DNA of 61,697 nucleotides from IMG/VR virus record IMGVR_UViG_3300002485_000002, positions 1 to 61,697 of that record; one strand, given 5' to 3'. This document shows positions 12,101 to 54,693 of this stretch, one piece after another (position 1 is the first letter of the stretch; every line of letters begins with the position of its first letter). A program made the position numbers and the translations under genes. Below the pieces are notes generated by a model. It saw nothing but the letters and a program-made list of their open reading frames with translations, searched no databases and was not told the origin of the DNA. Source of the stretch: a virus. Taxonomy: Duplodnaviria; Caudoviricetes.

Positions 12101-12372
12101 GCTGCAACGATGCCGCCCAGAACCGGGCTGGAAGCAAGCGAATCCGAATGGGTGGCAGACAGGAAATTATGCGCGCCCACTCCGCCACCGGGGCCGACCA
12201 GATTCCACGCTCCCGCTTGACAATCATACAAATTTCCGTTGGCATTGTTGACCGCCAGCATGATCGGAGCGCAAGAACCTGCCGGCACGCCGGCGAAACG
12301 AAGAATCACGGTGTTGCCGGCCTGAGCCAGCAAGGACGTGGTCAGACACACAAATAACAAGATCAGCCGCAT
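9109..12372 (-). CDS. Large tail-fibre-like protein with internal repeats and signal-peptide-like N-terminus
   Basis: T/S/A/G-rich; repeated GTANEIT and DE(T/V)G(T/S)GxxVFGTSPTI modules; C-terminal beta-sandwich. Confidence 0.7.
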   Translation of the reverse strand: MRLILLFVCLTTSLLAQAGNTVILRFAGVPAGSCAPIMLAVNNANGNLYDCQAGAWNLVGPGGGVGAHNFLSATHSDSLASSPVLGGIVAANATPAWAQVTGNTTTTKQFLTQTGTGAVSALPAWAVIVDADVPATITRDSEVNVQGTANEITSSGSGVAPTLSIAAVLNLSTKVLSGGSPLVFEGATPDAFETTLVVTEPTAPRTLTVPNADSAAVQPLTCSGTDKVSGVSTLGVITCSADVDTTAAHNLLSATHTDTAAASAVLGDILAGNVTPAWQRVAGNTTTAKQFLTQTGTGAVSALPAWAAIVDGDVPAAIARDAEINVQGTANEITSSGAGVAPVLSLSASLDVSGKEFLGGSPFRMEGTTNDNVYVTVVVTDPTLARTFTLPNADSVAVQPDAGAANQFLTAISTLGVISKAQPAFSNLSGSATLAQLPFGTANQVLGTNAGATAIEHKSLATGTTGTDFAIAHAANSVTFNLPSASATVRGALLSADWTTFNNSVDSVSGTASEIGSTGGQTPVISLAAQLALSGKELLGGSPIQFEGTTDDNVYTTIVVTDPTLARTFTLPNANSVAVQPLTCSGSDKVSAVSALGVVACSADVSGGTPAWESLVNSADTATSYTSNNTAETVTFSFESAFGASQQFLIRQQTGNPTAGTLLDVRAADAQVTVFRAGDGTNGITVSQTGALTAEGTGSITATLGDSATSFWAAGQCEAARGCTGDDTSGTTGVPRITAGNWTYDAGISHLAASTSADLLGVLNDETGTGVAVFGTSPTITTSLSQDGDAADAGYLRLQNAATIGWEASPAGTDITLTVDTSEVMQASGTFNAVTLTESGNAVPNATDNLSFFAATTSLQLLGVISDEVGSGALVFGTSPTITTSLLQDGDVADAGYFRLQNAAIIGWEASPAGTDITFSVDASEIFQFSSIVNVTTGLRVGGAATTGNYLRGDGTNFISAAIVHGDLPAVDRTRQIMFIVGADNGAVIVDGDDQATIYMNRLGQGITITEVQCESDAGSPIINLQRDDGSPANILSSNLTCSTSGATGTIDTNEDNVANTERIDYLMITAGGTAKRITVAVKFVVD

Positions 12373-12719
12373 CATCGTGTTATAAAGAGGACATTCACCG
12401 TTTCGGCGTTAGTGTCGCAAGCCAAGTAGATGTGGTCTAGCCGGATGAGGTTCACGTCCATCGAATAAATCGGCCAGACCTGCGTGGCGTAGATCAGCGC
12501 GCCGTAGTTGGTTGTACTCAAGTCAGGATTGCCGATGTAGAAACGAGCGCCGCCAGCATCGGGGTTGGCTTGGATAGCGACGAACTGAGCGCGTGGGGGG
12601 TTGCCCATAATCGGACGACGGGCTGCGGGGACGTCACTAAGTAGTTGCGACAACTGATAAGGCGTATTAGCCGTAGTCAGGGTAAGCGTGCCTGCCCAGG
12701 GAGTGTTCGAGACGGGCAT
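12372..12719 (-). CDS. Small beta-sandwich virion protein, paralog of 13176-13460
   Basis: IG...S.T.YGA...LD..Y pattern shared; TGATG coupling. Confidence 0.6.
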   Translation of the reverse strand: MPVSNTPWAGTLTLTTANTPYQLSQLLSDVPAARRPIMGNPPRAQFVAIQANPDAGGARFYIGNPDLSTTNYGALIYATQVWPIYSMDVNLIRLDHIYLACDTNAETVNVLFITR

Positions 12720-13473: not shown

Positions 13474-15366
13474 CTAGCTCTCTTTCATCACCATTCTGGG
13501 CATCTCCTGCCCGCTGGCTTTGCGCCCCGCCGGATTGACCTGCATCCCGATGCCGAGCGATTGAGCGGCCTGTAAGCGCTCAGTGATGCTGTTGGCCCCT
13601 GACGGGGGATTGCCTACATTGGGGATGCCTAAGACCTCAAGAAGCGTCCAGGGGTCCACCAGACCAGCCCGCGCCAACTGCAGATACAACAACTTCCGTT
13701 CGATTTCGCTGGCCGACAGCAGCGATCCCGGAGCGATATGGAATGTGAACTGGCGCAGAAACTCTTGCGCCCGGTCGAAGCGAGGCATCGGCCCTCGGGC
13801 CAGCGCCTCGGCGGTCGCTACCCCGCGATTGTCAAAGTCAGAAGCGTGGACATAGTCTGGAATCAAGCTGCCCGGATCGAAGTCGAAGTCCTCCGGCGTA
13901 ACGCCATCTTCCCCTAGAAGGTGCAGCCGGATCGGCAGCGTGTCGAATTGGGCGAAGTTATAGGCCAACATCATCGCAAACTCGCGGACGAAGGACTCCA
14001 TCATCCGGCTCCACAGGCGGATTTTGGGCGTCATGGCCTCTACCAGCCGCTCAATGGTGTCACCGGAGGGGAGTTGGTTGAGCCGCGAGAGGTGCCCGAG
14101 ATCCCGAACGCCGCTCAGGGTGTCCATTTCGTTGATGAGGAACTGGATTGTCTTCTCGATCGTCGGGTCGAGCGGCGGTTCGAGCGCCAAGACCACGCCT
14201 TTTCCGGCGGTAGGATTGTGGCGGATGCGCAGACCGGCCCGGCGGGTGTCGATCGAGTTCAACTCCGACTTGCTGATCGAGTTCTTGTCGGCGATCAGGC
14301 CAGGACGCGCTACTCTCTCGTTATGGTCATCGACCACCCTCAGCAGGCTGTTGAGAGATTTCTGAAGCGGTAACAGGTCCCACAAGGGCGCTTTGCCGAG
14401 CCATGACCACGGCCAGGGGTTCAAGGTGAACTTAGGCAGCGGGATCAAGCCGTGCCAATACCTGTTCGGACCATCATGCAAGATGACCGTGTTGGTGGCA
14501 GTGATGCAGCGCCCACGCGGATAGAGCGGCTCATCCGGCTGGACGATGTAGGACCAGTTCGTCAGCGGGCGGCCAGCCTGATCGAATTCGCCCATCTGCA
14601 CGGGGTAGCTGTTCTCATTACGGGAATCGTCCCGGAGATAGACCGTGTAATGATCGGCGGTGGGGATGCGAGGGATTTCCCGCGCTGCCTTGCCTCGGAT
14701 GCGGTCCCAGAATGGGGAAACAGCCTCATAAATTTGGGCGGCGCGGGATTGAGCATCCTGCCGGGAGGAAGTCGAGCCGTCACGGTCAGGATGAATCTGG
14801 GAGGCGAACTGAGGCCACCGACGGCGCAGCGAGTTGACTGTCCGCTCCTCGCGGATGACGGCTCCGAAAGCGTCCTGCAACGTCAGGTTCGAGGAGGGCC
14901 GAATGGGGAGAACATCCCGAGGGTCCAAGGCGCGAACATCGGTGTCGCCTATCTCGGGGTTCCAGAACACATGCGGAAATCCGGTGCCCGCTACTAACCA
15001 ATACTTGACAACCTCCAGCAAGCGCAAGTCGATCTGGCGCTGAAGGTACCAGTGGGTTGCGCGCTTGCCGAAGATTTCAGATTGCTTCTCGTAGCGCTTG
15101 TTCTGGGTACGGTATTCCCAGAAAGGCTTGATGTCGGTCAGATAGGCAGCGAGGTCGTCGGCGACCTTGGCGTAATGGTTGGCCGAGGTAGTCGAGAGGT
15201 TTCCGGGGCGGATGTCTTCGCGGGTCTGGCCGACAGCCTCGATGGACTTGGCGATCAGGTTGTAGCCGGGCTGAGCTTTGACGAAGGATTCCCCCTCCTG
15301 AATAGCTTCCCGTATCCATCCGTGGACTTGGCTGTCACGGTCGGAGGTTGGAATCTGGTCAGCCAA
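13474..15366 (-). CDS. Portal protein (630 aa)
   Basis: Size and position after the terminase; motifs L.AGTG..HV.W, LDPRDV, GP..YWHG..P, L.PLQ..LN, M..LSG; GGAGG RBS with TTG start. Confidence 0.85.
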   Translation of the reverse strand: MADQIPTSDRDSQVHGWIREAIQEGESFVKAQPGYNLIAKSIEAVGQTREDIRPGNLSTTSANHYAKVADDLAAYLTDIKPFWEYRTQNKRYEKQSEIFGKRATHWYLQRQIDLRLLEVVKYWLVAGTGFPHVFWNPEIGDTDVRALDPRDVLPIRPSSNLTLQDAFGAVIREERTVNSLRRRWPQFASQIHPDRDGSTSSRQDAQSRAAQIYEAVSPFWDRIRGKAAREIPRIPTADHYTVYLRDDSRNENSYPVQMGEFDQAGRPLTNWSYIVQPDEPLYPRGRCITATNTVILHDGPNRYWHGLIPLPKFTLNPWPWSWLGKAPLWDLLPLQKSLNSLLRVVDDHNERVARPGLIADKNSISKSELNSIDTRRAGLRIRHNPTAGKGVVLALEPPLDPTIEKTIQFLINEMDTLSGVRDLGHLSRLNQLPSGDTIERLVEAMTPKIRLWSRMMESFVREFAMMLAYNFAQFDTLPIRLHLLGEDGVTPEDFDFDPGSLIPDYVHASDFDNRGVATAEALARGPMPRFDRAQEFLRQFTFHIAPGSLLSASEIERKLLYLQLARAGLVDPWTLLEVLGIPNVGNPPSGANSITERLQAAQSLGIGMQVNPAGRKASGQEMPRMVMKES

Positions 15367-15789: not shown

Positions 15790-16209
15790 CTACAGGTACT
15801 GATCCAGTAGTGCGATCATACGTTGACGACCCTGTTCAATCAGTTGCAAACGGTATTTTTTCTTGAACATTCCCTCTTCATCTTCAAGTGTCCAACCACC
15901 GATATAGAACTCATCCCCTGGCCGATACGGACCCTCTCCAGTTCCAGGCGTATTGACGTAGAAACACCGTCCGACTCTGCCATTCGGTAATCGTTCCAAT
16001 GCGGTCCATTGTCCACAAATGTGGCGAGAAGTTGATGCGCCTTTCCATCCTGTCCAACTAACCGGCATCCCCCTATAGACGAACACTGGCTCAGGCCAGT
16101 CGCACAATAAATCCTGCGGAATACAATCTGAACCCCATAGATCTACGATAGAGGCTAGATTTGCTGTCGCCAGTGCTGGCAACATCACAACAAGTGTTCT
16201 CCGCTTCAT
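15790..16209 (-). CDS. 139-aa protein with RR-hydrophobic leader and two capsid-like segments
   Basis: GGAGG RBS; TGWK-x9-GQ-xx-A and GPY-xx-G-x-EF-x-I match the MCP. Confidence 0.7.
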   Translation of the reverse strand: MKRRTLVVMLPALATANLASIVDLWGSDCIPQDLLCDWPEPVFVYRGMPVSWTGWKGASTSRHICGQWTALERLPNGRVGRCFYVNTPGTGEGPYRPGDEFYIGGWTLEDEEGMFKKKYRLQLIEQGRQRMIALLDQYL

Positions 16210-16213
16210 GGCC

Positions 16214-16627
16214 TTATCCTCCGAGATAGCCCTGCAACGCCCGCGTGACGATTTCCTCGATGGCGTCCTCCAACGGCTTGCGCCCGGCGGCGTACTTAAT
16301 CTTCTGAAGCAAGTCGGGCTTGATGTGGACAGGCTTACCGTCGAGCTTGATGGTGTTAGCGCGGCGCAGAAACTCAACTACGTGACCGCCGCTAGGGAAG
16401 TTGCGGCCAAGCAGCTTCTCAAGCTCCCGGCGTCGTTCATCGTTGAAATAGAGCGATCGGCCATCGTCATGGGACCAGCAGGAACGCAGGCGGGCGACGA
16501 TGGCGGCTTCAGTGGTCAGCCCGAGAGCGCGAGCCTGAGACTGATAGACCCGGTAGGTCTCCTCGGGAAGTTCGATCGACAGGACGATGGTGCGGGCGGG
16601 GGCGGACTGCACAGGGGCGGCTGCCAT
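16214..16627 (-). CDS. Putative ribbon-helix-helix-like DNA-binding protein
   Basis: VLSIELPEETYRVYQSQARALG and VHIKPDLLQKIKYAA segments. Confidence 0.5.
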   Translation of the reverse strand: MAAAPVQSAPARTIVLSIELPEETYRVYQSQARALGLTTEAAIVARLRSCWSHDDGRSLYFNDERRRELEKLLGRNFPSGGHVVEFLRRANTIKLDGKPVHIKPDLLQKIKYAAGRKPLEDAIEEIVTRALQGYLGG

Positions 16628-16673: not shown

Positions 16674-17522
16674 TTAGCCCTCCGTCAGTTCCGAAAACCG
16701 CTCCTCCCACTCATCCCACATTTTAGCGGCTGAGATGTCGCTGGCCTGCCACGAGGGCACCTTCTCGCCCGCAAGGACCGGCTCCCGCTCGGTCTCTACT
16801 TCCATCGTCCAGTGGTGGCCAGCCCATAGGGTCAATAGGAGCGCCCGCAGGCGGTCATCGTGGGCGCCGTAGGCGGCCTTGGCCGACATCTTCACGGGAT
16901 CCATCTCGGCGCTGCGCATCTCCTCAATCAGCCACGGGCTGTTGATCGTAACGCGGTCACGATGTATGAACTTGGCCCCGCGTACCCATAGGTGAGTGAC
17001 CGACTTGGCGGTAGCGGTCCAGCCCAAAGCTCCAGTACGGCTCGGATGTGGGACCAAGGCATCGAGATAGGTCCAGACATATTGGTTGGTGTAGCCGAGC
17101 GTAATCATCTTACGCAGAGTCTGGAGACCAGGGCCGGGATAGACTTCGATGATCGAAAGGCACTGACCATCCTCGTTGGAGCCGCCGTAGAGACGCCCGA
17201 GGGCGTTGGCGACGATCCCGAGGTCCTCCGGGTCGATTGGGGCCGCATACTCGGCAACCTGCACGTCTGGTTCAGGCTCCTGGCCGATTCGCAGGACAGT
17301 GATCGCCCCGTTGTCAACGGTAATGTCATCCCGAGTGCGCAGCATACGGTCCCAATTGGGGATGCCCATGGTCGGGTCGATGCCCATAACGTAGGAGGCG
17401 CGTGGGCGCGGAGGTTCCCAGAGCCAGATAATGCCGCGAGGGTCGCGGTCGATTTCCCCAGCGTCGAGCGGAGAGAGAGTCTGAGTGGTTCCGATCGTAT
17501 AGGAGGTGGGTGTAGGCATCAT
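16674..17522 (-). CDS. terL: Terminase large subunit, stand-alone nuclease (RNase H-like) domain
   Basis: WEPP...YVMGIDP..G, QVAEY, IIEVY..G and HDDRL motifs; ATG at 17522 overlaps the upstream stop (ATGA). Confidence 0.85.
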   Translation of the reverse strand: MMPTPTSYTIGTTQTLSPLDAGEIDRDPRGIIWLWEPPRPRASYVMGIDPTMGIPNWDRMLRTRDDITVDNGAITVLRIGQEPEPDVQVAEYAAPIDPEDLGIVANALGRLYGGSNEDGQCLSIIEVYPGPGLQTLRKMITLGYTNQYVWTYLDALVPHPSRTGALGWTATAKSVTHLWVRGAKFIHRDRVTINSPWLIEEMRSAEMDPVKMSAKAAYGAHDDRLRALLLTLWAGHHWTMEVETEREPVLAGEKVPSWQASDISAAKMWDEWEERFSELTEG

Positions 17523-17731
17523 TTCCAAACAGTAGTTACGTAAGCTCCTGTTGGAGTATGATATTCTGTACCTTCCAGAACTACCCATTGCAGATTTGTT
17601 CCCGGACAGTTGGGTGAGAGTTCCGCATGGCTAACCATCAAGCAGCGTATCAGATCATCCGTCAACGCTCCATCTATTGCAGTACTACCCTCCTGTTTGC
17701 AATCCAGGCAACGCCACTTCTGTTTATCCAA
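17519..17731 (-). CDS. Small Zn-binding hypothetical protein between the terminase halves
   Basis: GGGGAGG RBS; CxxC...H...C. Confidence 0.6.
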   Translation of the reverse strand: MDKQKWRCLDCKQEGSTAIDGALTDDLIRCLMVSHAELSPNCPGTNLQWVVLEGTEYHTPTGAYVTTVWK

Positions 17732-17755
17732 TTTAGTAACCCTCCCTTTTAGGAG

Positions 17756-18004
17756 TCACGTCGCTGTATCATCGGCGGGACTATCTTCCCGCCTTTCACC
17801 ATCACGAGCCAAACGGTGACGATGTTTCAGCTTCTCAGCATCCAAGTGGGCTGCAAGTTCATTGGCTGCCTCAGTGAAACGGTTGCCTGCGGAGGCGGAG
17901 ATTGACACATTGGACCTGTCTGGACTATCAACATCATATTTTGGCTCAGACTTGAGAAAAGCCTCTCCCGTCTCTTCCAACATTTGATATGGTCCTTTTA
18001 TCAT
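17756..18004 (-). CDS. 82-aa protein resembling the portal N-terminus
   Basis: ATGA-coupled; GEAFLKSEPKY and NRFTEAANELAAHL align to portal residues 24-80. Confidence 0.7.
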   Translation of the reverse strand: MIKGPYQMLEETGEAFLKSEPKYDVDSPDRSNVSISASAGNRFTEAANELAAHLDAEKLKHRHRLARDGERREDSPADDTAT

Positions 18005-19239
18005 GATGCTCTCCGTATCAATTCATAGGGTACGCCCGCGCGCGCTCTCAAGTCCAGCCGCTCCATCAACTCGGCATCGAAGGCAGCCTGGCCGGAGTGC
18101 TGAAAACTTTCCTCGGGAGTGGCGCAATAATTCGTAAGGAAGATATTCAGCGTAGATGAACTTGGCCCCACGTGCCCATCGCCGTCGCCCTGCGCTGCTC
18201 TTCGAGTCGTCTCCCACCAATACATTTGCTCTGGTGAAGGACTGTAGCGATAACCAACCAGCCTTGGGCTGGTATCCTCAATCTTGCGAGCAGCCAGTAC
18301 GGTAGTTTCGAAGGGTCGCCAGTCAACAGGCGGATTGCGTCGATAGCGCTTCGGCTCAATATACCAGGGGGTGAAGCTATAGATCCAATCGACGCGGCGG
18401 CCTGCTCGGACAGCTTCACTAAAACTATGCCACCAGTTGCCTCGACCGTTTGCGGCGCTTTCCAAAAAAGCGAGGGTGTCGATCGACCGGGGCAAGGTCG
18501 GGAAGAAATCGTTCTCGATTGTCAGCGGATATTCCCAGGAGGCACATTCGGTAAGATGACCAGTCGGAAAGTTGCTTCCCTGCCCGATGCCAGTATGTTG
18601 AAGACCCTGCTGGTAAAGAATATGCGAATTGAGCCGATCAAAATGAAGATGTTGAGACTTCACATCAAAACCGATAGAAGGATGAAGAAACCAAGGAAGG
18701 TTGTCGAGAATTAACTTGTCGCGCCGGTAGAGTTCAAGGATCTTACCCTCACTGACGGAGGCGGCAAGCGAACGGGTATTCTTGTGAAACAGGACGCGGT
18801 GAAGCATTAGGGCGCGGGCCAACATCGTAGCTCCCAATTGGCGAGCTTTGTGACAGGCGATCCGAATACCGTCGGCTATTTTGGCACGGTCGAAGGAGTC
18901 CCACTGGGATTCTTCCGCCTGGCCGATGAGCTTGAGCATGATTTCCTGGGAAGCCCAGAAGGTCATCGGGCCGACGCCGCCTCCCATCTCGGGGTCAATG
19001 TCGATGGTGGCGTAGCGTTCGGCGAAGTAGCGGAAGTCGCACATCGACAACAGCACTTCGTTGATGCAGAACAGGCTCTCCTCGCGGGTCAGCGGACGCT
19101 TCAATCCCTTGTCAGTCACCAGCGAGTGAATCTCAAGAGCGCGGCCCTGCGACTCAGACGGGGCGTGTCGCTTGAGGCGGACTTTCGTTGCGCTCTCGAC
19201 CTGCTCAGTGCGGCGAAGGATGATCTTGTCGGAGTACAC
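18001..19239 (-). CDS. terL: Terminase large subunit, stand-alone ATPase domain
   Basis: KARQLGAT Walker A, HLTECASW Walker B, ESAANG motif III, FTPWY, YCATPEESF. Confidence 0.9.
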   Translation of the reverse strand: MYSDKIILRRTEQVESATKVRLKRHAPSESQGRALEIHSLVTDKGLKRPLTREESLFCINEVLLSMCDFRYFAERYATIDIDPEMGGGVGPMTFWASQEIMLKLIGQAEESQWDSFDRAKIADGIRIACHKARQLGATMLARALMLHRVLFHKNTRSLAASVSEGKILELYRRDKLILDNLPWFLHPSIGFDVKSQHLHFDRLNSHILYQQGLQHTGIGQGSNFPTGHLTECASWEYPLTIENDFFPTLPRSIDTLAFLESAANGRGNWWHSFSEAVRAGRRVDWIYSFTPWYIEPKRYRRNPPVDWRPFETTVLAARKIEDTSPRLVGYRYSPSPEQMYWWETTRRAAQGDGDGHVGPSSSTLNIFLTNYCATPEESFQHSGQAAFDAELMERLDLRARAGVPYELIRRAS

Positions 19240-19497
19240 TCAGTCCTTCAACTCAATCATATCCTTCAGCCTGAATCTCCGCTTACACTTCCAGCATGTC
19301 CCTACGCCGCCACTAGTTTCATTCGCGTCGTACCACTTTGTTGCAATAACCCCTCCTACTCCCCACCACATGCCGCGCCGCCCGTCTGGAAGTTCTACGA
19401 AATGGTTGCTATCCATGCCGTCGTCGGACAGATTGTACTCATCGTAGGGACAAAGAACAGGTATGCCATTGGCGGCATCGTCTTTCGTGGATTTCAT
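19240..19497 (-). CDS. Hypothetical protein
   Basis: ATGA-coupled; Cys pairs. Confidence 0.55.
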   Translation of the reverse strand: MKSTKDDAANGIPVLCPYDEYNLSDDGMDSNHFVELPDGRRGMWWGVGGVIATKWYDANETSGGVGTCWKCKRRFRLKDMIELKD

Positions 19498-19778
19498 TCC
19501 GTCTCCTGCCCCACCGGGCTGACGATGCCCTGCTTGCGACGCATCTCCTGACGCAACTGGGCTAGTTCGTCTACGTAGGTGATGGCGTCATCGTCAAACG
19601 GTAGAGCCTCTGGCGAGGGCTTGATGCCCAACAGCGCCGCCTCGACCAGGTTATACAGACGCCGCAGGCTCTCGTTAAGGACGCGAAGTTCGGCCAGCAT
19701 AGCCTGATTGATGACGTAAAACATCCCGAGCAGTGCCATACCAAAGAACAGCAGCAGAAACAGCGTGACGTACATCAT
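19494..19778 (-). CDS. Membrane-anchored hypothetical protein
   Basis: N-terminal transmembrane segment. Confidence 0.6.
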   Translation of the reverse strand: MMYVTLFLLLFFGMALLGMFYVINQAMLAELRVLNESLRRLYNLVEAALLGIKPSPEALPFDDDAITYVDELAQLRQEMRRKQGIVSPVGQETE

Positions 19779-20380
19779 GTTGGAATCTCCGGCTCGGCAG
19801 GGCGGCCCGGCCTGACCTGAACCATCTCGATGATCTTCTCCATGCCCTGATCGGGGCCGAAAGAGGCGGAGAAGGAGTTGAAGTTAGCGACCAGGGGGGC
19901 GTCGCCGGTGACCCCCAGCGCCTGCATCATTATGTGGCGGGATTCGAGGTCGCCGGGCTTCTGGATGACCCCATGACCCGAGCAGCGCGGGCAGAGCGAC
20001 TTCGACTTGCGGCTGAGTTTGCCCTTGCCCCGGCAAGTCGGGCACAGATCGGTGAAGGAGGCGGCATCGGAGGCGATGTTTTCCATCACCTTGGGAGCGA
20101 ACGTGGACATCGCCATCAGGCCCAAGTTGACCTGATGACGCCGCCAGACATCCTGAAGGTCGGTCAATGTGACGGCATGATGGCGGCAGAGCGTCACTAG
20201 CGTCATACGGGAGTTGCGCGGGTCGGTCATGGAGGTCTGCAAGTCACGGAACCGTTGCTCCTCCTGGAGAGCAAGGGCGGCGGTAAACTCCCCCAACGGG
20301 ACGTTATGAAAGAACTTGTGCATCGAGGCGTCGTAGCGGGGGTTGTCAGGGACCGGGCGATTGTCGAGGTCGCGTTTCAT
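19775..20380 (-). CDS. Probable terminase small subunit with CxxCxGxG zinc-finger insertion
   Basis: Upstream of terL; CPTCRGKG...CPRCSGHG; helical core. Confidence 0.5.
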   Translation of the reverse strand: MKRDLDNRPVPDNPRYDASMHKFFHNVPLGEFTAALALQEEQRFRDLQTSMTDPRNSRMTLVTLCRHHAVTLTDLQDVWRRHQVNLGLMAMSTFAPKVMENIASDAASFTDLCPTCRGKGKLSRKSKSLCPRCSGHGVIQKPGDLESRHIMMQALGVTGDAPLVANFNSFSASFGPDQGMEKIIEMVQVRPGRPAEPEIPT

Positions 20381-20601
20381 GTCACCTTCCGATCCACATT
20401 GGGGATTTCCAAACCTTCAAGAAGCGTCCAGTTGTCGATTAAGCCGACCCTGTGTAGCTGCATGTATAACATCATTCTCTCAATGTTGCTGATGGACAAA
20501 AGCGCCCCCGGAGCGATGTAGAACTGACGAAGGAGTTCTTGTGCTCGATCAAAGCGCGGAAGCGCTAAAATCGGAAGCGTCAACAGAAAACGACGGGTCA
20601 T
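20377..20601 (-). CDS. 74-aa protein: TRRFL leader fused to a copy of portal residues 528-584
   Basis: GGAGGAG RBS; 41/57 identical residues by manual alignment. Confidence 0.85.
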   Translation of the reverse strand: MTRRFLLTLPILALPRFDRAQELLRQFYIAPGALLSISNIERMMLYMQLHRVGLIDNWTLLEGLEIPNVDRKVT

Positions 20602-21326
20602 GTTATCTCCTCCGGGGCGGTGTTCCCAAATAAAGCATAGTACTCAGGCGAGGCTCCTGCAACGCCCCACTTCTTTCGAAAGTAAGCCCGGTTGCGGTCA
20701 GCCTGCTTTTGGATGGCATGGGCCTCAGCATCGGGAGCGGCTTTGAGAGTCTGACTGGCGTGGTGCAGGAATGGCAGATCGAGCGAACAGGCGGTGATGC
20801 CCGCACGATGCAGGCGCACGTGGTAATCCCAGTCCTCGCAAAAGGCGATCTTGAAGTTCTCATCAAATGGGCCGACGCGGTCCCAGGCAGAGCGCCGGAT
20901 GAGGAAACAAGAGAAGTCGGGATGGGGGCGTTTCAAGGCCGGGTCGGGAGGCAGGTACGGACTGCCGATCTTCTCTCGCTCTCTTACGCCGATTCCAGTA
21001 ACGAACTCCCCGCCATCTTCCACTAGTCGTCTATACGTATCGGGCCGAAGCTCTACGTCATTGTTCACCACCAAAACGTAGTCTTCGCTCTGTGCGAATA
21101 TCCACCGCAACCCGGCATTCCAAGATTCAGCCACTGATCGGGGCGGGCGGGAATGCCAGATACCAAGATCGGCTTCGGAATCATTCGGCAGCCATCGGCT
21201 GATGCCCTCGTCGCTGTTGTCTATCAACAGAATGAAGAGGTTGCCGATGTCCTGAGCATAGAAGCTGGCAAGAGCGGGGCGAGTAAGATGCAGGCTATTG
21301 CGGTGAGGACAGAGAATCCAGTTCAT
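20598..21326 (-). CDS. Glycosyltransferase, GT2 family
   Basis: LIDNS, WNAG, VVNNDV, VGPFDENF..FCEDWDY. Confidence 0.9.
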   Translation of the reverse strand: MNWILCPHRNSLHLTRPALASFYAQDIGNLFILLIDNSDEGISRWLPNDSEADLGIWHSRPPRSVAESWNAGLRWIFAQSEDYVLVVNNDVELRPDTYRRLVEDGGEFVTGIGVREREKIGSPYLPPDPALKRPHPDFSCFLIRRSAWDRVGPFDENFKIAFCEDWDYHVRLHRAGITACSLDLPFLHHASQTLKAAPDAEAHAIQKQADRNRAYFRKKWGVAGASPEYYALFGNTAPEEIT

Positions 21327-21339
21327 CGACATCCTCTTT

Positions 21340-21822
21340 TCACTGAAGAATTGCCGCCAACGCTGTGGTCTTTCCCCGCGTATACTCAACTTTTGCCATA
21401 GCGAGGGCTTGTTTATATTCATCCCACGTGTCTATGCCCTTATGATTAGCCAACGCTACGGCTCTCGCTTGTTCATACTTCACTTGTGCTGGAGCTATTG
21501 CACGGTAGTACTCCACCCACACTGGACTTACATCCTCTTGGGTTGCAACGGTCATCACCCAAAGGCAATCCCCCAAACCATTCGCATTGAGGATCACTGT
21601 CAAATTAATCGGCTCGTTGCATTGTACGGAGGTTAGTCCTCCCAGGATGCTGTCTAGATGCTCGGGGTTCGCATCTGGGGCCAAGCCGATCAAAAATAAC
21701 AAGCTAGCGAAGCGCTCAGATATGCACGCTAGGGACCAACCGCTGACAAAACCGGTGTCTGCCGCTGCCGCCACACAAGCGCGATGCTTGTTTATTAGGT
21801 TGATGGTTGTGGTCAGTGTCAT
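21340..21822 (-). CDS. Hypothetical phage protein
   Basis: MTLTTTINLI..H..C...EPI....IL..NGL.DCLW pattern common in phage accessory genes; AT-richer than flanks. Confidence 0.6.
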   Translation of the reverse strand: MTLTTTINLINKHRACVAAAADTGFVSGWSLACISERFASLLFLIGLAPDANPEHLDSILGGLTSVQCNEPINLTVILNANGLGDCLWVMTVATQEDVSPVWVEYYRAIAPAQVKYEQARAVALANHKGIDTWDEYKQALAMAKVEYTRGKTTALAAILQ

Positions 21823-22334
21823 TTCACGGCCTCCAGTGATAATACCCACCAATCCCGAGCGGCGCTCATGCCCGAAATCGCCCGCCAATCAAAGGGCTTG
21901 ATCTGCGCCCAACGAACGCAGTCATCGCCTGCTAGGGTAAGAGCCAGGCTTTGACGGCGAAAACCCCAACGGTGTCTGTCGCTTTCCAGCCCCTGGTAGG
22001 CCCCATACAGGTTGACGCAATAGATGTAGTCGTTGATCTGCCCGAGAATCCAGCGCTGAGCGAGTTGCCAGAGGTCGGGGACAAACACGAGCAGGCTGCC
22101 TCCAGGGGCGAGAACACGCCAACACTCTCGAATCAAGCCATCACCCTCACCGCAGCCAAAGTGTTCGAGGACATGATGCAGGCAGACGATTTCGGCGCTC
22201 CCGGTCGGGAAGGGCAGGACAGCGCCGTCAGCGAGCACGTCGGGAACCTGATCGGGCGGGCGAGAGACGAGGTCGATATTGGTCCAGCTTTCCCCGAAGC
22301 GGCGCTGACCGCTGCCGATGTTGAGTTTCAGCAT
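21819..22334 (-). CDS. SAM-dependent methyltransferase (type 11-like)
   Basis: LNIGSG, W.NID, HVLEHF, RVLAPGG. Confidence 0.9.
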   Translation of the reverse strand: MLKLNIGSGQRRFGESWTNIDLVSRPPDQVPDVLADGAVLPFPTGSAEIVCLHHVLEHFGCGEGDGLIRECWRVLAPGGSLLVFVPDLWQLAQRWILGQINDYIYCVNLYGAYQGLESDRHRWGFRRQSLALTLAGDDCVRWAQIKPFDWRAISGMSAARDWWVLSLEAVK

Positions 22335-22685
22335 CTACTCCTCTATTAGCTGCATCGCGTCTACATTCATCATCCGTTCGACCCGGTAATCGGTATTGGC
22401 AGCCCGGCTAAAGCGAGCAACCGCCTCGATGAAGGAGCCGCCCCTTGAGTACATTAGCGTCATAGACTGCGCTTCTCCTTGGACTAGCCATCGTGCTGCA
22501 CCCTCAGGAGCCTGCCGATTGTAACTGATACGTATTGCCCGATCTGGGTTTTGGATCAGCCAGCGGCGAATCCAGAAGATCGTTCGGGGGTTCATGCGCA
22601 ACTCCTGTTTCTGAGCAGGACATTCTCGGCGCCAACAGTTCCGAGCAAGCCAACGACGCATCAAAACGATGGTTTTGGAGTTCAC
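22335..22685 (-). CDS. Hypothetical protein with duplicated N-terminus
   Basis: MNSKTIVLMRRWL / MNPRTIFWIRRWL. Confidence 0.5.
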   Translation of the reverse strand: MNSKTIVLMRRWLARNCWRRECPAQKQELRMNPRTIFWIRRWLIQNPDRAIRISYNRQAPEGAARWLVQGEAQSMTLMYSRGGSFIEAVARFSRAANTDYRVERMMNVDAMQLIEE

Positions 22686-22912
22686 GTGCTCACCTCTTTG
22701 CCTACAAGTTCCCTAAGTTGCTCAAACTGGCCCGGCTCCAACTGGTCAATGTTGTAAACAACAAGTGGTGAGCCATCTAAATCCGTCGCACGTATCAGGA
22801 GTGCCATGATAGCCCACTTCTCCTTCATCGCTTTGCCAACAGCTTCCATCTGCCATGTAGATATTCTCCGCCTATCCCAAATCACGATTATGCGTTTTGA
22901 TTCTTGCGTCAT
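22682..22912 (-). CDS. Hypothetical protein
   Basis: Start and stop overlap the neighbouring genes. Confidence 0.55.
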   Translation of the reverse strand: MTQESKRIIVIWDRRRISTWQMEAVGKAMKEKWAIMALLIRATDLDGSPLVVYNIDQLEPGQFEQLRELVGKEVST

Positions 22913-23523
22913 ACGTGCTCCAGCAGAACGTTCTCCGCGTCCTGCATGACCAACTGAAAACCCGGCAGCATGGCCAGCAGTTCCGAGCGCACGGCCTGTC
23001 CCTCGTACATCTCGCACTCATAGGCTTCCATGTAGAGCCAGTGGGTACGGGCCAAGGTCTTTCGACCGCCCTCGATCATGTCGCGCTCGGCTCCCTGGAT
23101 GTCAGCCCATAAGAGATGAATTGGGCCAATGGGTAGTTCCCGCCCTGCAAGTTTATCTAATGTAACGCAGGGTACCTCGATAGTTTGGTCGAATCGGCAC
23201 CAGGGCCAGTGCTCCTGATGCAAGAGCGGCTGCCGGATTGAACTAGAAGCAGGAACCACACCAACATCGTTGTCGCTTAGGTGTAGGGTAATCATGCCCG
23301 TGTAGGATGCGATTGCAGCCTCCACCATCTGAAACCCCCATATTTGGCGTAGCAAGGGATAGTGGCGTGGATCGGCCTCAACGGCAAGATATTTGGGCGC
23401 TCCAGAGCACAGACTCCGCAACCAGACTGTATCATTCCCCCGATGAGCGCCTAACTCAATCACCGTAGGATCGGGGATAGTCCGTAGGATGTCGGCAATC
23501 CGCTCCCTCACTGCTGCCCCCAT
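22909..23523 (-). CDS. FkbM-family methyltransferase
   Basis: ELGAHRG, EADP, VTLD, ADIQGAE..IEG, YEGQ. Confidence 0.9.
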   Translation of the reverse strand: MGAAVRERIADILRTIPDPTVIELGAHRGNDTVWLRSLCSGAPKYLAVEADPRHYPLLRQIWGFQMVEAAIASYTGMITLHLSDNDVGVVPASSSIRQPLLHQEHWPWCRFDQTIEVPCVTLDKLAGRELPIGPIHLLWADIQGAERDMIEGGRKTLARTHWLYMEAYECEMYEGQAVRSELLAMLPGFQLVMQDAENVLLEHV

Positions 23524-24173
23524 TTTTCTGCGAAGATTCGCGCACCTTCGGCGGTATCAGCCGTTCCCTTTCGCATGTAGGTGTTCATACAGGGCGAATG
23601 GAAACCGTGTTTGACGATTACGTCGGCTATGAGCAGGTTCCAGCCTACTCGGCGGATACGTTCGCAATAGTCGAAGTCGTCATGCCCGTAGCTGGTGAAC
23701 TGTTCGTCCCACCCGCCAATCAGGTCGATGATCGCCCGGCGAATGTAGATCAAAATGAAAGCGAGCCTGGTAGCAGTAATAGCCCAGTAACGGTAGTCCG
23801 CTTTCACGACTTGCTGTTCTACGATTCCGCAGCCTCCGTCAATTCGGGGAGAAACGACCGCGATCTTGGAGCGCATATATGCGGCGTCTTGTAGTCGCTT
23901 AACCGTATCTGGAGTGATAAACTGCGTGTCGTCGGACGCCATTAGAACGTCAGCCCTACCGGCCGCCAGCAGCCCCAAGTTGATGTTACGAGGCATGACG
24001 TAGGGCTGCGGGCCTTCGACCACTGCCCAATCTGACGGAGGTTCGATCGCCGGGCCGTCGCGGACCAGGATTTTGCGACAGAAGGTGTCCGGCTCGTACT
24101 GCTGCTGTGAACACAGGAACTGAGCGAAGATGTCCGGGTAGCAGGCTGGAACGACTAAGGCTACCTCTCGCAT
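23508..24173 (-). CDS. Glycosyltransferase, GT2 family
   Basis: NLG, SDD, IGGWDEQF..YGHDDFDY. Confidence 0.85.
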   Translation of the reverse strand: MREVALVVPACYPDIFAQFLCSQQQYEPDTFCRKILVRDGPAIEPPSDWAVVEGPQPYVMPRNINLGLLAAGRADVLMASDDTQFITPDTVKRLQDAAYMRSKIAVVSPRIDGGCGIVEQQVVKADYRYWAITATRLAFILIYIRRAIIDLIGGWDEQFTSYGHDDFDYCERIRRVGWNLLIADVIVKHGFHSPCMNTYMRKGTADTAEGARIFAEKWGQQ

Positions 24174-25105
24174 AGGCCTATCCTCTGAAAGATTTCATTA
24201 AACCGGCGCTCATAGGTGTGATCCCGCAGGCAGCGCTCGTAGCCACGACGGGCGATGGCCATTCGTTCGCTGCTGTGGGCAAGATAGTAGCGAACCTTAT
24301 CCACTAGATCGCCTAGCCCCTCAAACACACCAATCTCTTTGCCGAGTTCAAAGTAGTCGCCCAAGTTATCGGCTACATTCGTCAGGAGGAACCCTCCGCA
24401 GGAGGGAACCTCGAAGTTCCGCCCCTTGATCTGACGACAGCCCGGCTGGGCAGCCTCAGCGAAGTTCAGGTTGATCTTGCTACTGCCGAAAACGCGGATC
24501 ATATCCTCCTGGGTGAGCCTGCCGTTTCCATGATTCGGACCCCAGACTTGAACATTGATGCCCGCGTCTCGAAGCGCGTTGAGATAGAGATGGCGATCCC
24601 CATGCGAGCGTCCGACAAAAGTTACAGAGTGCTCCCAATCCCTATCCCTCTCGTAGAGGATAGGGTTCGCTCCCCACTGGCTCTTGATGACATTCGTGTA
24701 GCCGATGGAGGCGTACTTGGCCGGAGCCTCGCTGGCGGTAGTGACGATCCAGTTGAAGCACGGCGCCCACTGACAGGAGAAGCTGTCCCACCGCCAGTGG
24801 TCGTCGCAGAACCAATGAAGCGTGGTGGTGAGGCCGCTGTCGGAAATCCGCCGCATGGTCTCGCGGCTGACCTCGTCGTACATGAAACAGGCGAACAGCA
24901 AATCGGGTCGTTCGTCTTTGACAAGCTGTTCCAGATCGCGGTTCATCGCCTCGTTCCCTTGTCGGCGAGAGTTCTGGAAGTAGTCGAAGTAGATGATCCT
25001 GTGTCCCATCTGCCGCAGGGAATCGTAGAAGTTGTAGTGCTCGAAGCTGCGCCCGGCGGTCGGATCGCCGTAGTCCCACTCGTTAGCTACGTAGAGAATG
25101 TTCAT
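24161..25105 (-). CDS. CgeB-like GT-B glycosyltransferase
   Basis: WFCDD, FVG...R, SKINLN, KGRNFEV..CGGFLL, HTYERR. Confidence 0.88.
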   Translation of the reverse strand: MNILYVANEWDYGDPTAGRSFEHYNFYDSLRQMGHRIIYFDYFQNSRRQGNEAMNRDLEQLVKDERPDLLFACFMYDEVSRETMRRISDSGLTTTLHWFCDDHWRWDSFSCQWAPCFNWIVTTASEAPAKYASIGYTNVIKSQWGANPILYERDRDWEHSVTFVGRSHGDRHLYLNALRDAGINVQVWGPNHGNGRLTQEDMIRVFGSSKINLNFAEAAQPGCRQIKGRNFEVPSCGGFLLTNVADNLGDYFELGKEIGVFEGLGDLVDKVRYYLAHSSERMAIARRGYERCLRDHTYERRFNEIFQRIGLCER

Positions 25106-25338
25106 GACTTGTTCGCTTGAATCGCCTCAGGCATCAACTGAAGTCCTAGACCTACGCCCATAGCGTGCTTCTCGGCACGCTCCAGCGCCATGAGAATGGC
25201 ATCGATCTGATATGACGTTAGTTTCAGCGTCATGCCGTTCTTTAGGACTACTATCCCGCCTCGTGAACCTTCGCTATCCTGTATCGCCACCACCTCATCC
25301 AGATTCACGTAAATGTCCCTATCTCGGTATATCATCAT
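25102..25338 (-). CDS. Hypothetical protein
   Basis: Tightly coupled ORF; C-terminus weakly similar to the portal tail. Confidence 0.55.
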   Translation of the reverse strand: MMIYRDRDIYVNLDEVVAIQDSEGSRGGIVVLKNGMTLKLTSYQIDAILMALERAEKHAMGVGLGLQLMPEAIQANKS

Positions 25339-26058
25339 TCACTCCATCACCACTCCCGCCACTCTCGCCATCGCCTCATGCCCCACTGCTTTCTCCCCAA
25401 AGCTACTGGTCAACCCTGCGTTATGCACCACATGTGGATGCACCGCACCCACCTTGAATCCTGCCCCTCTGATCCTCTGTGTGTACTCCCAGTCTTCCGA
25501 CTTGGCCACCCCCACAACTTTGGCATCCAGCATCCCGAACCTGTCCCACGTCTGCCACTCCATCAACCAACTCAGCCCGCCGACCGTGTAGTATTCGCGG
25601 ATCTCGCCGTGCGGATAAGGGGTAACGGGCGCGGGTCGGCCCACCTCTATACCCTCGATGGCGTGGTAAGGATGGTTATATCCCCCAAGAATCCTGTAGC
25701 CCTCCACGCATGCTGCGGGCCACGCGACCAGCAGCCTCTCCAACCATCCGGGGGTGAAGTAGGCGTCGTTGTCGCTCATGTAGAGCAAATCCCCCCGGCT
25801 CCAATACAGTTCCGCCGCCCGGATGCCGAGATTGCGTACCAGCCCGACGATGCCCTTGGAGCGAGATAAGCGGACAATGACAGTATCATCACGCCCGGTA
25901 GTCGTCAGATCGAGGACGCCCCGAGTCTGGAGTTGTGAGCCATCATCAACAACAGTTAGACTGAATGAACCGCGCTCGGTGTGGGCGTAGAGCGAAGACA
26001 GCGCCTGCTCGGTAAGGCGAGGGCGATCCTTGACTAGCATGACGATGTTGACGGTCAT
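25339..26058 (-). CDS. Glycosyltransferase, GT2 family
   Basis: VVDDGS, RNLG, SDNDAYF..GWL, SEDWEY. Confidence 0.9.
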   Translation of the reverse strand: MTVNIVMLVKDRPRLTEQALSSLYAHTERGSFSLTVVDDGSQLQTRGVLDLTTTGRDDTVIVRLSRSKGIVGLVRNLGIRAAELYWSRGDLLYMSDNDAYFTPGWLERLLVAWPAACVEGYRILGGYNHPYHAIEGIEVGRPAPVTPYPHGEIREYYTVGGLSWLMEWQTWDRFGMLDAKVVGVAKSEDWEYTQRIRGAGFKVGAVHPHVVHNAGLTSSFGEKAVGHEAMARVAGVVME

Positions 26059-26400
26059 TCAAGGACTCCGCCTATTCAAGTAAGCGCAATGCAGAAACTC
26101 AACATAGTAGCGGAGATCAGCCACTGACCGCTCCAGCTCATCAAGGCGCTTGACAAGTTCCTCAAAGCGCTTGAGTATTTCACAAATATCATGCACCGAA
26201 TGCTCTAGTCCCTCAATGCGATCGCGTAACACACGTATGTCTGCATCCAGGTAGAGGAGATCCTGGCGTCTATCAAGCTCGTTTTGAGGTCCAGCGTGCA
26301 TCATAGGTCCGTGACCGTGTGGACACAGCGCCCCACCGTACCTCATTGGGGCTGTTGCCCCGCATACCAAGCAGACATCGTAAGCAGCTTGATTCGTCAT
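26059..26400 (-). CDS. Zn-ribbon plus coiled-coil hypothetical protein
   Basis: CxxCGAT...C..GHG.M, also present in 43438-43728. Confidence 0.55.
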   Translation of the reverse strand: MTNQAAYDVCLVCGATAPMRYGGALCPHGHGPMMHAGPQNELDRRQDLLYLDADIRVLRDRIEGLEHSVHDICEILKRFEELVKRLDELERSVADLRYYVEFLHCAYLNRRSP

Positions 26401-26448
26401 ATCAGTTTGTTCTTCATCACGACCGACAGTCCCTTCATGTAGGGGCTT

Positions 26449-26586
26449 TCATGGCAACTTGACTCCGTTCACGACCAGAAAAGCCTTGATCCAAGGGAAT
26501 CCGACCTTCAGGAACCATGTGAAAACGAGATAGAGCGCAAATAACTCGATTATCACAACCGTCCAAAACCAAGTACGTTCGCTCAT
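26449..26586 (-). CDS. Small membrane protein (45 aa, not in ORF track)
   Basis: GGAGGTGA RBS; MSERTWFWTVVIIELFALYLVFTWFLKVGF... Confidence 0.5.
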   Translation of the reverse strand: MSERTWFWTVVIIELFALYLVFTWFLKVGFPWIKAFLVVNGVKLP

Positions 26587-27290
26587 GCCCTCACCTCCCA
26601 CGGCAACACATCCCGCATCTCATCCCACAGCCATCGGTGAGCGTCCGCGTGTGTCTGCTCATCGGTCAACCCGCGCTCCCGAAGCCAGTCTTGGTAGGCA
26701 GGCTTGGTAGAAGTCTGCCCGCCTTTGTGCAGGCACGAGACGCCGACCATGCGGATGCGATAGCCCTGACGGCGGGCGACACCGCAGAGCCAGTAGTCGT
26801 AATTATGGAAGATCAACTTGTGAACCGGCCACCCAGCCCACTGCTTCATCCCGTCCTGGTGCCACGCTCTCTCCAGGATCACCCGGCGAACAATCAGAGC
26901 GAAGCCATCAAGCACGGCCACGTCGCACGCGCCGGTGAATCGCTGGCCGTGCTGTTCGGCGTCTGTAGTATTCGAGAGGTATCCGTAGCGAGCGAGGTTC
27001 TGCAAGCGGTAGGGCGAGCGGTAAAGGTCGGGGCTGCCATGTCGCAAAGCGCCGCCGAAACCGATGAGGCCGACCGAAGGATCGGAAAACTCGGCCAGCA
27101 CACGCTCGGGCCAATCAGGATCGTAAATCTCCACGTCGTTATGCAGGTAAGCCAGAATGTCGGCCTTAGCTACCTCAAGTAACTCTTGGTACATAGCAAC
27201 CACCGACCCGACTCCCGTTACAAAGTACCGATCATCTCCAGGCCCGCTAACAGGTTCGGAAGGACAGGCCATGCAGACTGTCATGGTCAC
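26583..27290 (-). CDS. Glycosyltransferase, GT2-like
   Basis: YLHNDV, G.IG..G, AVLDG, FHNYDYW.C. Confidence 0.85.
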   Translation of the reverse strand: MTMTVCMACPSEPVSGPGDDRYFVTGVGSVVAMYQELLEVAKADILAYLHNDVEIYDPDWPERVLAEFSDPSVGLIGFGGALRHGSPDLYRSPYRLQNLARYGYLSNTTDAEQHGQRFTGACDVAVLDGFALIVRRVILERAWHQDGMKQWAGWPVHKLIFHNYDYWLCGVARRQGYRIRMVGVSCLHKGGQTSTKPAYQDWLRERGLTDEQTHADAHRWLWDEMRDVLPWEVRA

Positions 27291-28462
27291 TTCAGGCCCT
27301 CCAGAAACCACTTCTTCCAGCAGCCTTCCCACAGCCGGGGCCATTGAAGATGCTCGACGATACCGACTGCACGCTCAGGGTCGCGCCAGCTCGATTCGGC
27401 CAGCACCTTCTGAATGCAGGCGCTCCAGTCGGCAGGCTCAAACACCGGACGGAGCAAATTGTAGGGGCCGTCGAGGCGATAGCTGACGGGGCGCACGAGC
27501 AGGTCGTCGTCGTTGCGCAGCAGGCAAGCGCCGCCGCCGTAGTCGCCGTGAATAACCGGGACGCCGCAAGCCAAGCTCTCAACGATCGGATAGCCGAAAC
27601 CCTCGCCGAGCGACGGCAAGATCGTCAGGTCGCAAGCTGAGTACAGATAGCTCAACTCCACGTCGTTCTTGGTCTCTGACATCGTGACTCGAACAACGTC
27701 TGCCAGCCCGAAATCTTGGATTAGGGCATAGATCGACCAAGCGCGGACCATCGCATCGACGTGAACCCAAAAACGCAAATTCTGAATCTTGGAACGCAGG
27801 TCAGCGACGGCGGCGAATGCGAGGCCCCAGTCCTTCCGGGTCTGATTGGTCATGACGCAACCAATCAGAATGTCGTGCGCATGAATGCCGAGAGTCATCC
27901 GACCGGGAGCACGCTCGCGGGGCGAGAAGGATGCAGGGTCATATCCGTGCGGCAGCCAGTCTACCTCTGTGCCGAGCGAACCGCTAAGAATACTGGCTCC
28001 CCAGGGCGTATAGGCCAACCGGCGGTTGAAGCCTCTGACGGCAGCGACCGCGAGGCCGGTTAGGCGGTCGCCGGGTCCGGTTGCATCGACCGGGAAGTAG
28101 CCCCAGCGGCGGAAGGGCGGGCGGCGGAGGAAACTGAATGTCTGTTGATCGAACGCCTCTGGCCGGGGGTCTACCAACCAATGCAGGCGGACCGGGTCCC
28201 AGATCGTCATGAGAATGCCAGAATCGCCTTTGGAGAATTCCCGCCAGACCCGTTCCAGGTGTTGCTCACCCCAGTCCCAGCGCTCATCGAAAGTGTATTG
28301 ATGGAAAGGGAGCTGGCTGGAACCGCAGCCGCCACGCCCTAGGAACCCGACACGAAACTCGGGGAGTGACGATACGCGGACGGCCAGATCGCGGCTGATG
28401 CGTCCGAGGCCGGTCTGGAGGTCGGGGGAGTCGCCAAGAAACAGGATAGGAGTAGGTTTCAC
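27287..28462 (-). CDS. Glycosyltransferase, GT4 family
   Basis: TGLGR, PHG.D, NQ.RK, PSLGEGFGYPIVESLACGVPVI. Confidence 0.92.
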   Translation of the reverse strand: MKPTPILFLGDSPDLQTGLGRISRDLAVRVSSLPEFRVGFLGRGGCGSSQLPFHQYTFDERWDWGEQHLERVWREFSKGDSGILMTIWDPVRLHWLVDPRPEAFDQQTFSFLRRPPFRRWGYFPVDATGPGDRLTGLAVAAVRGFNRRLAYTPWGASILSGSLGTEVDWLPHGYDPASFSPRERAPGRMTLGIHAHDILIGCVMTNQTRKDWGLAFAAVADLRSKIQNLRFWVHVDAMVRAWSIYALIQDFGLADVVRVTMSETKNDVELSYLYSACDLTILPSLGEGFGYPIVESLACGVPVIHGDYGGGACLLRNDDDLLVRPVSYRLDGPYNLLRPVFEPADWSACIQKVLAESSWRDPERAVGIVEHLQWPRLWEGCWKKWFLEGLK

Positions 28463-54690: not shown

Positions 54691-54693
54691 GAG

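Follow-up and report, generated by a model that had tools for sequence, protein, structure and literature searches.

A leader-tagged copy of a portal crown segment in a podophage-type genome is probably a selected accessory gene

Why would a phage that already encodes a portal also carry, among its packaging genes, a separate small copy of one piece of that portal? The question is raised by IMG/VR virus record IMGVR_UViG_3300002485_000002, which was analyzed over its whole length of 61,697 bp and is referred to here as the window. The window is a complete virus record with direct terminal repeats and represents a 61.7-kb podophage-type soil phage. An open reading frame (ORF) for 74 amino acids, at 20377..20601 on the minus strand, begins with MTRRFLLTLPILAL and joins a short leader, containing two arginines (RR) and a hydrophobic stretch, to a block that resembles the crown domain of the portal. 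Its best reading is that of a real, protein-coding accessory gene under selection, to which we give a probability of roughly 0.8. Three things speak for this reading, namely the gene signals, the way in which the two copies have diverged and, most of all, a distant phage locus, L012, which has the same cargo behind an RR leader, with the same end point and at the same position. Judged from its sequence, the 74-aa protein is an old, faster-evolving mini-copy of the core of the portal crown domain behind a short twin-arginine/hydrophobic leader.

The parent family of the copied fragment is that of the phage's own portal, a protein of 630 aa encoded at 13474..15366 (minus strand). This protein matches existing profiles weakly (PF23899 SU10_portal, E 3e-4; phrog_156, E 3.2e-7), and its AlphaFold2 (AF2) model, with a predicted local distance difference test (pLDDT) score of 76.7, retrieves the portals of Pan3, Pa223, SU10, VP1, N4 and T7 as top Foldseek matches (E 1e-15 to 1e-10). 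By its predicted fold it is a podophage-type portal. According to the AF2 model and the alignment, portal residues 528–584 (13615..13785, minus strand) form a crown-domain segment after the long wing helix. The copied segment consists of helix 529–537, a short strand and helices 549–566 and 572–579, which make up the core of the crown domain and belong to the best-conserved stretches within this portal family. Residues 14–69 of the 74-aa ORF pair with residues 527–584 of the portal, with 41 of 56 aligned positions identical and one in-frame gap of two codons. The earlier note had counted 41 identities over 57 positions of portal residues 528–584 and placed them at 13785–13615; the identities and the coordinates are correct, and the alignment is one position shorter, contains the gap and starts at residue 527. 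The relationship is highly significant by every approach used, with E values of 1.3e-22 in a sequence search against the own portal, 6e-22 in an all-against-all BLASTP comparison of 1240 frames of the window, 6.5e-22 in an hhalign comparison with a profile of 17 portals and 3.5e-25 with a hidden Markov model (HMM) of the crown segment.

The homology is limited to the crown block, since the flanks of the ORF are not significantly similar to the portal. In shuffling tests, 1197 of 2000 shuffles reached at least the observed score for the tail and 323 of 2000 for the leader together with 60 nt upstream; for the leader alone, a post hoc choice, the count was 39 of 2000. An origin of the leader from frame-shifted portal sequence is unsupported by this test. 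The crown-like block thus delimited comprises residues 15–69 (20395..20559, minus strand), and its paralogy with portal residues 528–584 is seen in the alignment, the HMM search and the AF2 models. In the model of the small protein (pLDDT 68.9), helices 16–26, 33–52 and 57–63 mirror the three portal helices, and a short helix of low confidence is placed at leader residues 6–12. Foldseek searches with this model returned nothing at E<=0.001, and a protein atlas search found no match at 0.8 or above. Compared with portals of the SU10/T7/N4 type (PF23899; solved relatives 9vyf, 9nwm and 7z44), residues 15–69 are homologous, and closest to the own portal, whereas the small protein corresponds to only 56 of 630 residues and lacks wing, stem, clip and C-terminal tail; therefore, it cannot form a channel. 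It has instead the extra leader, a two-residue deletion and residues absent from 36 portals. The protein ends five residues after the IPNV motif and is devoid of the conserved portal tail (TITERL...GRKASGQ), which is retained by every portal fragment cut at a contig edge. An identical 74-aa protein is found on 14 contigs, and one further contig encodes the variant P0002, which is 96% identical. Among 1.84 billion representatives, phmmer found 53 matches, of which 29 were fetched; those examined, P0002 aside, are either complete portals or 3' pieces of portals truncated at contig edges. A search with the crown profile for relatives of 33–161 aa gave 34 matches; leaving P0001 and P0002 aside, the 31 examined of the other 32 are portal 3' fragments with tails or adapter artefacts. 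Scans of viral and metagenomic collections with the small ORF gave no match, although records near the window may be missing from these scans.

The divergence between the two copies indicates that the duplication is not recent. They are 68% identical at the nucleotide level, with 16, 7 and 31 differences at the first, second and third codon positions, respectively, and 24 of the 41 identical residues are encoded by different codons. The NG86 method gives a nonsynonymous divergence (dN) of 0.185 and an undefined, saturated synonymous divergence (dS), for which LWL85 gives 2.47. In the first crown helix, 12 of 13 residues are kept despite changes in 9 of the 13 codons. The earlier note had pointed to synonymous divergence, proposed a codon alignment with dN/dS as the check and favored protein-level selection or capture from a related phage over a fresh duplication, and these values agree with it: on the evidence of its codons, the mini-copy is old, not fresh. 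When the 16 differing sites were polarised with 36 other portals, the own portal was found to have nearly always the family-majority state, and 7–8 states of the small ORF were unseen in any of these portals. Among the latter are the loss of two residues, an alanine for the serine of the PGS motif and the exchanges K to M, A to H, A to V, P to N and V to G. Such states in an open frame indicate that the copy has evolved for some time as a non-portal sequence, faster than the portal and without acquiring a stop or frameshift. No other portal exceeds 62% identity to the small ORF, whereas the own portal reaches about 73%; thus, no sampled foreign portal is a better donor. In the phylogeny with portal homologs that had been proposed as a check, the tree of the 63-column segment lacks resolution. 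In approximately unbiased (AU) tests, neither a grouping of the two known mini-genes, that of the window and that of L012 (p 0.44), nor a grouping of the small ORF with its own portal (p 0.56) is rejected, and an old duplication under selection could not be separated from capture from a relative.

The ORF also has the signals of a gene. A Shine-Dalgarno sequence, GGAGGAG (20607..20613, minus strand), lies 5 nt 5' of its ATG, within the last codons of the upstream gene. At 20598..20601, the stop of this gene, which is GT2-like (glycosyltransferase, 20598..21422, minus strand, by library matches) and lies directly upstream, overlaps the start of the 74-aa ORF in an ATGA; a second ATGA, at 20377..20380, joins the stop of the ORF to the start of a 201-aa zinc-finger gene (CXXCXGXG; 19775..20380, minus strand; Pfam DnaJ_CXXCXGXG, E 3e-5) that heads the terminase block. 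Both overlaps are on the minus strand, in a run of co-oriented genes. Overlaps of 4 nt occur in 11 same-strand gene pairs of the window, and 25 of 94 ORFs picked by a greedy choice have a strong 5-mer Shine-Dalgarno site in front of them, compared with 4% of random positions. Between 19000 and 22500, there is no Rfam match and no noteworthy promoter- or terminator-like site. Reads from four DNA runs (X12–X15) yielded identical low-coverage contig pieces only, with no variant letters; a read joint from 19382 to 21192 was set aside, because its shorter side has just 20 letters at 80% likeness.

The counterpart in L012 carries the most weight. Phages with portals 38–59% identical to that of the window were collected from IMG/VR and metagenomes. 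The region upstream of the zinc-finger gene is covered in eight distinct genomes, including the window, and a crown-like mini-gene is present in two of these, the window and L012. The L012 portal is 54% identical to that of the window. Its mini-gene encodes 92 aa (L012:8837-9112, minus strand), ends 2 nt before the zinc-finger gene and consists of a leader N-R-R-G-F-L-S, a 15-residue Ala/Gly-rich stretch, DPERLLWTPGKKLISVP and the crown core. The L012 ORF matches the crown HMM with E 2.1e-13, its own portal with E 2.2e-12 and the window ORF with E 1e-11 (BLASTP, 20/46). Relative to the portal, both mini-genes end within 3–5 residues of a common position, at which the ribosome site for the zinc-finger gene starts. 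On 42 shared core columns, the two portals have 35 identities, the two mini-genes 18, and either mini-gene has 22–29 with either portal. From these counts, the mini-genes evolve several-fold faster than the portals, and neither is clearly nearer to its own portal in the core.

The leader of the window protein, residues 1–14 (MTRRFLLTLPILAL; 20560..20601, minus strand), as read from the sequence, contains a twin-arginine motif followed by some 10 hydrophobic residues. Signals of the twin-arginine translocation (Tat) pathway have the consensus S/T-R-R-x-F-L-K at the N-terminus and a hydrophobic region of usually about 12–20 residues. Read by eye, T-R-R-F-L-L-T fits this consensus loosely; TRRFLLT is followed by about 10 uncharged residues in all (FLLTLPILAL) and then directly by P-R-F-D-R, with no A-x-A. 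The description of the leader in the earlier note as Tat-like but imperfect, with a short h-region, is accurate. Relative to Tat signal peptides (PF10518, TIGR01409), the window protein shares an N-terminal T-R-R-x-hydrophobic pattern, an uncharged stretch and basic residues thereafter, whereas its hydrophobic region is shorter, a small-x-small cleavage site is absent and proline follows directly. The L012 leader is much more typical of twin-arginine leaders than that of the window; its PF10518 match, at E 0.16 and 12.5 bits, stays below the cut-off of 22.7. Just one further credible RR-leader ORF exists in the window, at 15790-16209 (minus strand); it encodes 139 aa and has a GGAGGA site and a typical signal-like start, MKRRTLVVMLPALATANLA. 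Derivation of the window leader from that of the 139-aa ORF was considered and rejected, as the codons of the two show no likeness at the DNA level.

The design is apparently not confined to these two phages. Searches that started from the L012 protein and continued with its N-terminal module recovered the RR-leader module in 22 IMG/VR loci. Members of this family (L012, L038–L040 and L047–L066) share M-[TN]-R-R, about 11 or more hydrophobic residues, a near-invariant DPERLLW[RT]PG, often AKLISIP, and a variable cargo of 33–140 residues. Their leaders all score below the Pfam TAT_signal cut-off, the best reaching 16.1 bits against 22.7. The RR-module HMM, built from 16 members, matches the L012 ORF with E 2.8e-17 and no portal. 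Derivation of the DPERLLWRPGAKLISIP module of the family from the crown is unsupported, since its HMM matches no portal and gives the window ORF only E 9.1. Where the context is visible, the RR-family genes adjoin terminase or portal genes; for instance, the L038 member lies between the end of the large terminase gene (TerL) and the portal gene, and the L040 member is upstream of TerL. Several of the cargos are pieces of capsid proteins. The third tandem gene of G005 matches the 445-aa P22-type coat protein of the same genome with E 8.4e-10 and phrog_283 with E 2.9e-5, L054 matches the C-terminus of the G005 coat protein (E 9e-6), two pieces of coat are recognizable in L050 (E 5e-4 and 0.004), and L066 has in common with the coat a motif of eight identical residues (E 0.026), besides a weak phrog_283 match. 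One phage fragment (L039:505-2199) has a tandem array of three RR-leader mini-genes, of which the first and second are alike in the leader and in the 40–90 residues after it, while the third has a coat-protein C-terminus. The capsid likeness of the 139-aa ORF of the window is not significant (best E 0.053).

The window protein shares with this family the MTRR start, about 11 hydrophobic residues, a virion-protein cargo and a position among packaging genes, and the family member L012 agrees with it in both crown cargo and position. By contrast, the window protein has no DPERLLW[RT]PG..LISIP, and the first crown helix of the portal stands there instead. It has a cargo from its own virion and the packaging-gene position and fails to match the module. 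Our literature search, which did not extend to supplementary files, yielded no account of Tat-type leaders joined to pieces of portal or capsid proteins, and leader-tagged mimics of virion proteins are apparently a class not yet described. By its sequence features, the window gene may be placed in this class as a portal-crown member with a shortened leader.

If the 74-aa protein is made, how might it act? Mimicry of the crown is the simplest reading because the copied piece normally sits at interfaces between subunits and with partners, and we hold this mode of action to be tentative, at somewhat below even odds. The mini-protein would offer a crown surface detached from the portal ring and would bind the usual partners of the crown, either a neighboring portal subunit or the internal ejection proteins. 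Were the leader to work as an export or anchor signal, its location would be the inner membrane or the envelope. The likeliest use would be to hinder a related phage during superinfection or co-infection, by exclusion or by disturbing assembly. A mimic held in the envelope could intercept the ejection proteins of the second phage, whereas a cytoplasmic one could instead cap the portal subunits of the rival. Action in the envelope against incoming ejection proteins is, as a specific mechanism, doubtful. A partial analogy is provided by T4 Spackle (Sp), which acts in the periplasm to exclude superinfecting phages, blocks an ejected virion enzyme and is the product of an early gene, not a copy of a virion protein. 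It is likewise a small leader-bearing phage protein, and the window protein would similarly meet the ejected proteins of a second phage in the envelope; there is, however, no homology between the two, and the export of the window protein is putative. For podophages, the accessible portion of one study describes an ejectosome mounted on the portal crown, an EP3 helix intercalated between crown domains and expulsion of the ejectosome into the periplasm of the next host (PMC11440229). The tail-assembly-inhibition (Tai) genes of prophages and satellites, as far as the available part of their description goes (PMC11364771), may offer a second analogy, as mobile-element genes that hit virion assembly of a competitor via a structural component; they have no sequence relation to the window gene, act on tails, are not described there as fragments of their target and are experimentally based. 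A moonlighting role of the kind reported for the T7 portal against RelA/SpoT was rejected. This activity needs an intact ring according to the portion of the source available (PMC13483052), which suggests no such role for a free crown piece.

Several observations weigh against a selected gene with an exported product, and some of them favor a non-functional relic, that is, a piece of the own or a relative's portal that illegitimate recombination left behind on insertion of the glycosyltransferase block, with a frame that is open by chance or only for ribosome passage from the upstream gene to the zinc-finger gene. The mini-gene is absent at its site in six of the eight genomes, and L013, which has almost the same zinc-finger gene as L012, contains unrelated sequence in its place. 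Comparison of L012:8780-9220 with L013:5160-5560 reveals a cassette swap exactly there, with conserved flanks and unrelated interiors. The mini-gene is dispensable, because it is absent in six genomes and replaced in L013, and its site is, from these comparisons, a variable hotspot. The GC content of the ORF is 0.49, compared with 0.60 for the portal gene, its GC content at third codon positions (GC3) is low, and replacements at the first and second codon positions go 15 to 5 from GC to AT, which fits relaxed constraint. The sole known variant, P0002, has 3 changes in 74 amino acids, one of them at the equivalent of an arginine that is invariant in portals; six portal variants of near relatives show at most 4 differences in 630 residues and are invariant in the crown segment. 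A donor portal could have passed on the synonymous divergence, and a captured, already diverged fragment with about 15 later neutral changes would often, in somewhat less than half of cases by our rough estimate, keep an open frame by chance. The 15 sequencing runs that contain the stretch are all DNA, none RNA. The window leader is a putative export or anchor signal with a short hydrophobic stretch and no AxA; the ORF has no match to Tat models (Pfam TAT_signal, NCBIfam) at E<=10, and the RR-module HMM aligns only its residues 1–9 (E 9.1). Finally, most RR-family cargos are without detectable likeness to structural proteins, with a strong paralogue within +/-10 kb in 0 of 13 and a PHROG match in 1 of 10. 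A relic is nonetheless unlikely: L012 has the same cargo, end point, position and RR leader, the ORF has a strong ribosome site of its own, the first helix is kept at 12 of 13 residues across nine changed codons, and states never seen in portals imply that it has evolved for some time as a non-portal sequence without a stop. A noncoding use of the sequence, as a gene-conversion template for crown variation, is suggested by the presence of a direct repeat of the portal segment 6.6 kb from the portal gene. We consider it very improbable, given that homologous recombination would be very inefficient at 68% nucleotide identity, that the presence of a start codon, a ribosome site and a leader speaks for translation into protein and that the crown segment shows no variation among the six near-relative portals.

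Two further explanations accept a protein product and give it another task. Translational coupling of the ORF within the packaging module, the retained crown helix pattern and the location of RR-family genes beside terminase and portal genes in other phages would suit a part in the phage's own assembly or virion, either as a tethered or free helper that caps or nucleates portals via the crown–crown interface, or as a minor internal protein extending the crown. An essential role of this kind is hard to reconcile with the absence of the gene from most relatives with the same portal family and its exchange in L013, so that we regard this explanation, too, as unlikely, by a shade more than the relic. 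Portal and capsid proteins are the most conserved proteins of phages and the targets of many bacterial immune sensors. A free crown piece might serve as a cytoplasmic decoy that binds portal-sensing host sensors of the Avs4 or SpbK type without triggering them, or soaks them up. Portals are known triggers of immunity, as with SpbK and the YonE portal in the available part of one report (PMC13728456), and are among the sensed proteins listed in the accessible part of another (10.1101/2023.04.06.535777), and the fragment comes from one of the best-conserved portal stretches. However, a decoy leaves unexplained the RR/hydrophobic leader, a feature also of the L012 protein and of the family at large. 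Encoded in the late packaging operon, it would not appear before the portal does. The link to Avs4 suggested in the earlier note has no support here, as nothing in the literature retrieved joins Avs4, portal and crown; the decoy is the less probable of these two tasks. A selected accessory gene, best supported by the L012 parallel, is the reading that we retain.

The neighborhood of the mini-gene contains further features. Homologues of the zinc-finger gene are found upstream of TerL in L004, L005, L011, L012, L013, L017 and L023. Directly upstream of the packaging genes lies a glycosyltransferase/methyltransferase block (20598-28462, minus strand), which includes, besides the GT2-like gene, a methyltransferase (21819-22334), a Glyco_trans_1_2 protein (24161-25105) and a GT4 protein (27287-28462), all on the minus strand. 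The complete relative G002 has neither the mini-gene nor the GT2-like glycosyltransferase. The large terminase is split in the window (16674-19239, minus strand) into an ATPase ORF (18001-19239) and a nuclease ORF (16674-17588), with two small ORFs in between; the halves are adjacent in L011 and L015 and up to about 1.9 kb apart in L004. One of the intervening ORFs, 17756-18004 (minus strand, 82 aa), aligns by hhalign to portal residues 22–79 with a probability of 68% and E 4.8e-5, and may be a second portal-derived mini-gene. In BLASTP, its frame (17759-18022) matches the portal with E 0.005, a level at which several chance matches are expected, and it has no RR leader. Of the wider list of fragment genes put forward earlier, only 20377-20601 is robust in the all-against-all BLASTP comparison. 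The small ORFs of the packaging region (17519-17731, 17756-18004, 15790-16377, 20377-20601 and 21340-21888) have a GC content of 0.47–0.52 and a GC3 of 0.39–0.59 and are more AT-rich than the large conserved genes of the window, with a GC content of about 0.60 and a GC3 of 0.72–0.81. Elsewhere in the window, a tandem pair of paralogous genes (52943-54693, minus strand) shares 41% identity over about 300 aa (BLASTP, E 4e-63). A 1088-aa ORF at 9109-12375 (minus strand) has no Pfam match, and its opposite-strand frames repeat one another (for example, 11180-11719 and 11723-12034, 63% over 104 aa), which points to tandem DNA repeats inside the gene.

Taken as a selected accessory gene, the 74-aa ORF is useful for the family as a whole, since its cargo is unambiguous (E about 1e-22 to the own portal) and recurs at the same position in a second phage. 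A bolder proposal, for which we see only a slim chance, is that several phage lineages keep modular RR-leader mimics of interface pieces of their own portal or capsid proteins, which would be placed in the envelope and would capture or co-export the virion or ejection proteins of rivals, an undescribed, mimicry-based form of warfare between phages. Because the genes are short, modular and dispensable, the RR-leader family would be easy to test. If phages routinely keep expressed, leader-tagged mini-copies of their virion proteins, this would constitute an unrecognised layer of phage biology, with exclusion of rivals by mimicry, decoys and envelope-linked steps of head assembly as candidate roles, and such proteins would be ready-made small binders of the partners of portal or capsid proteins.

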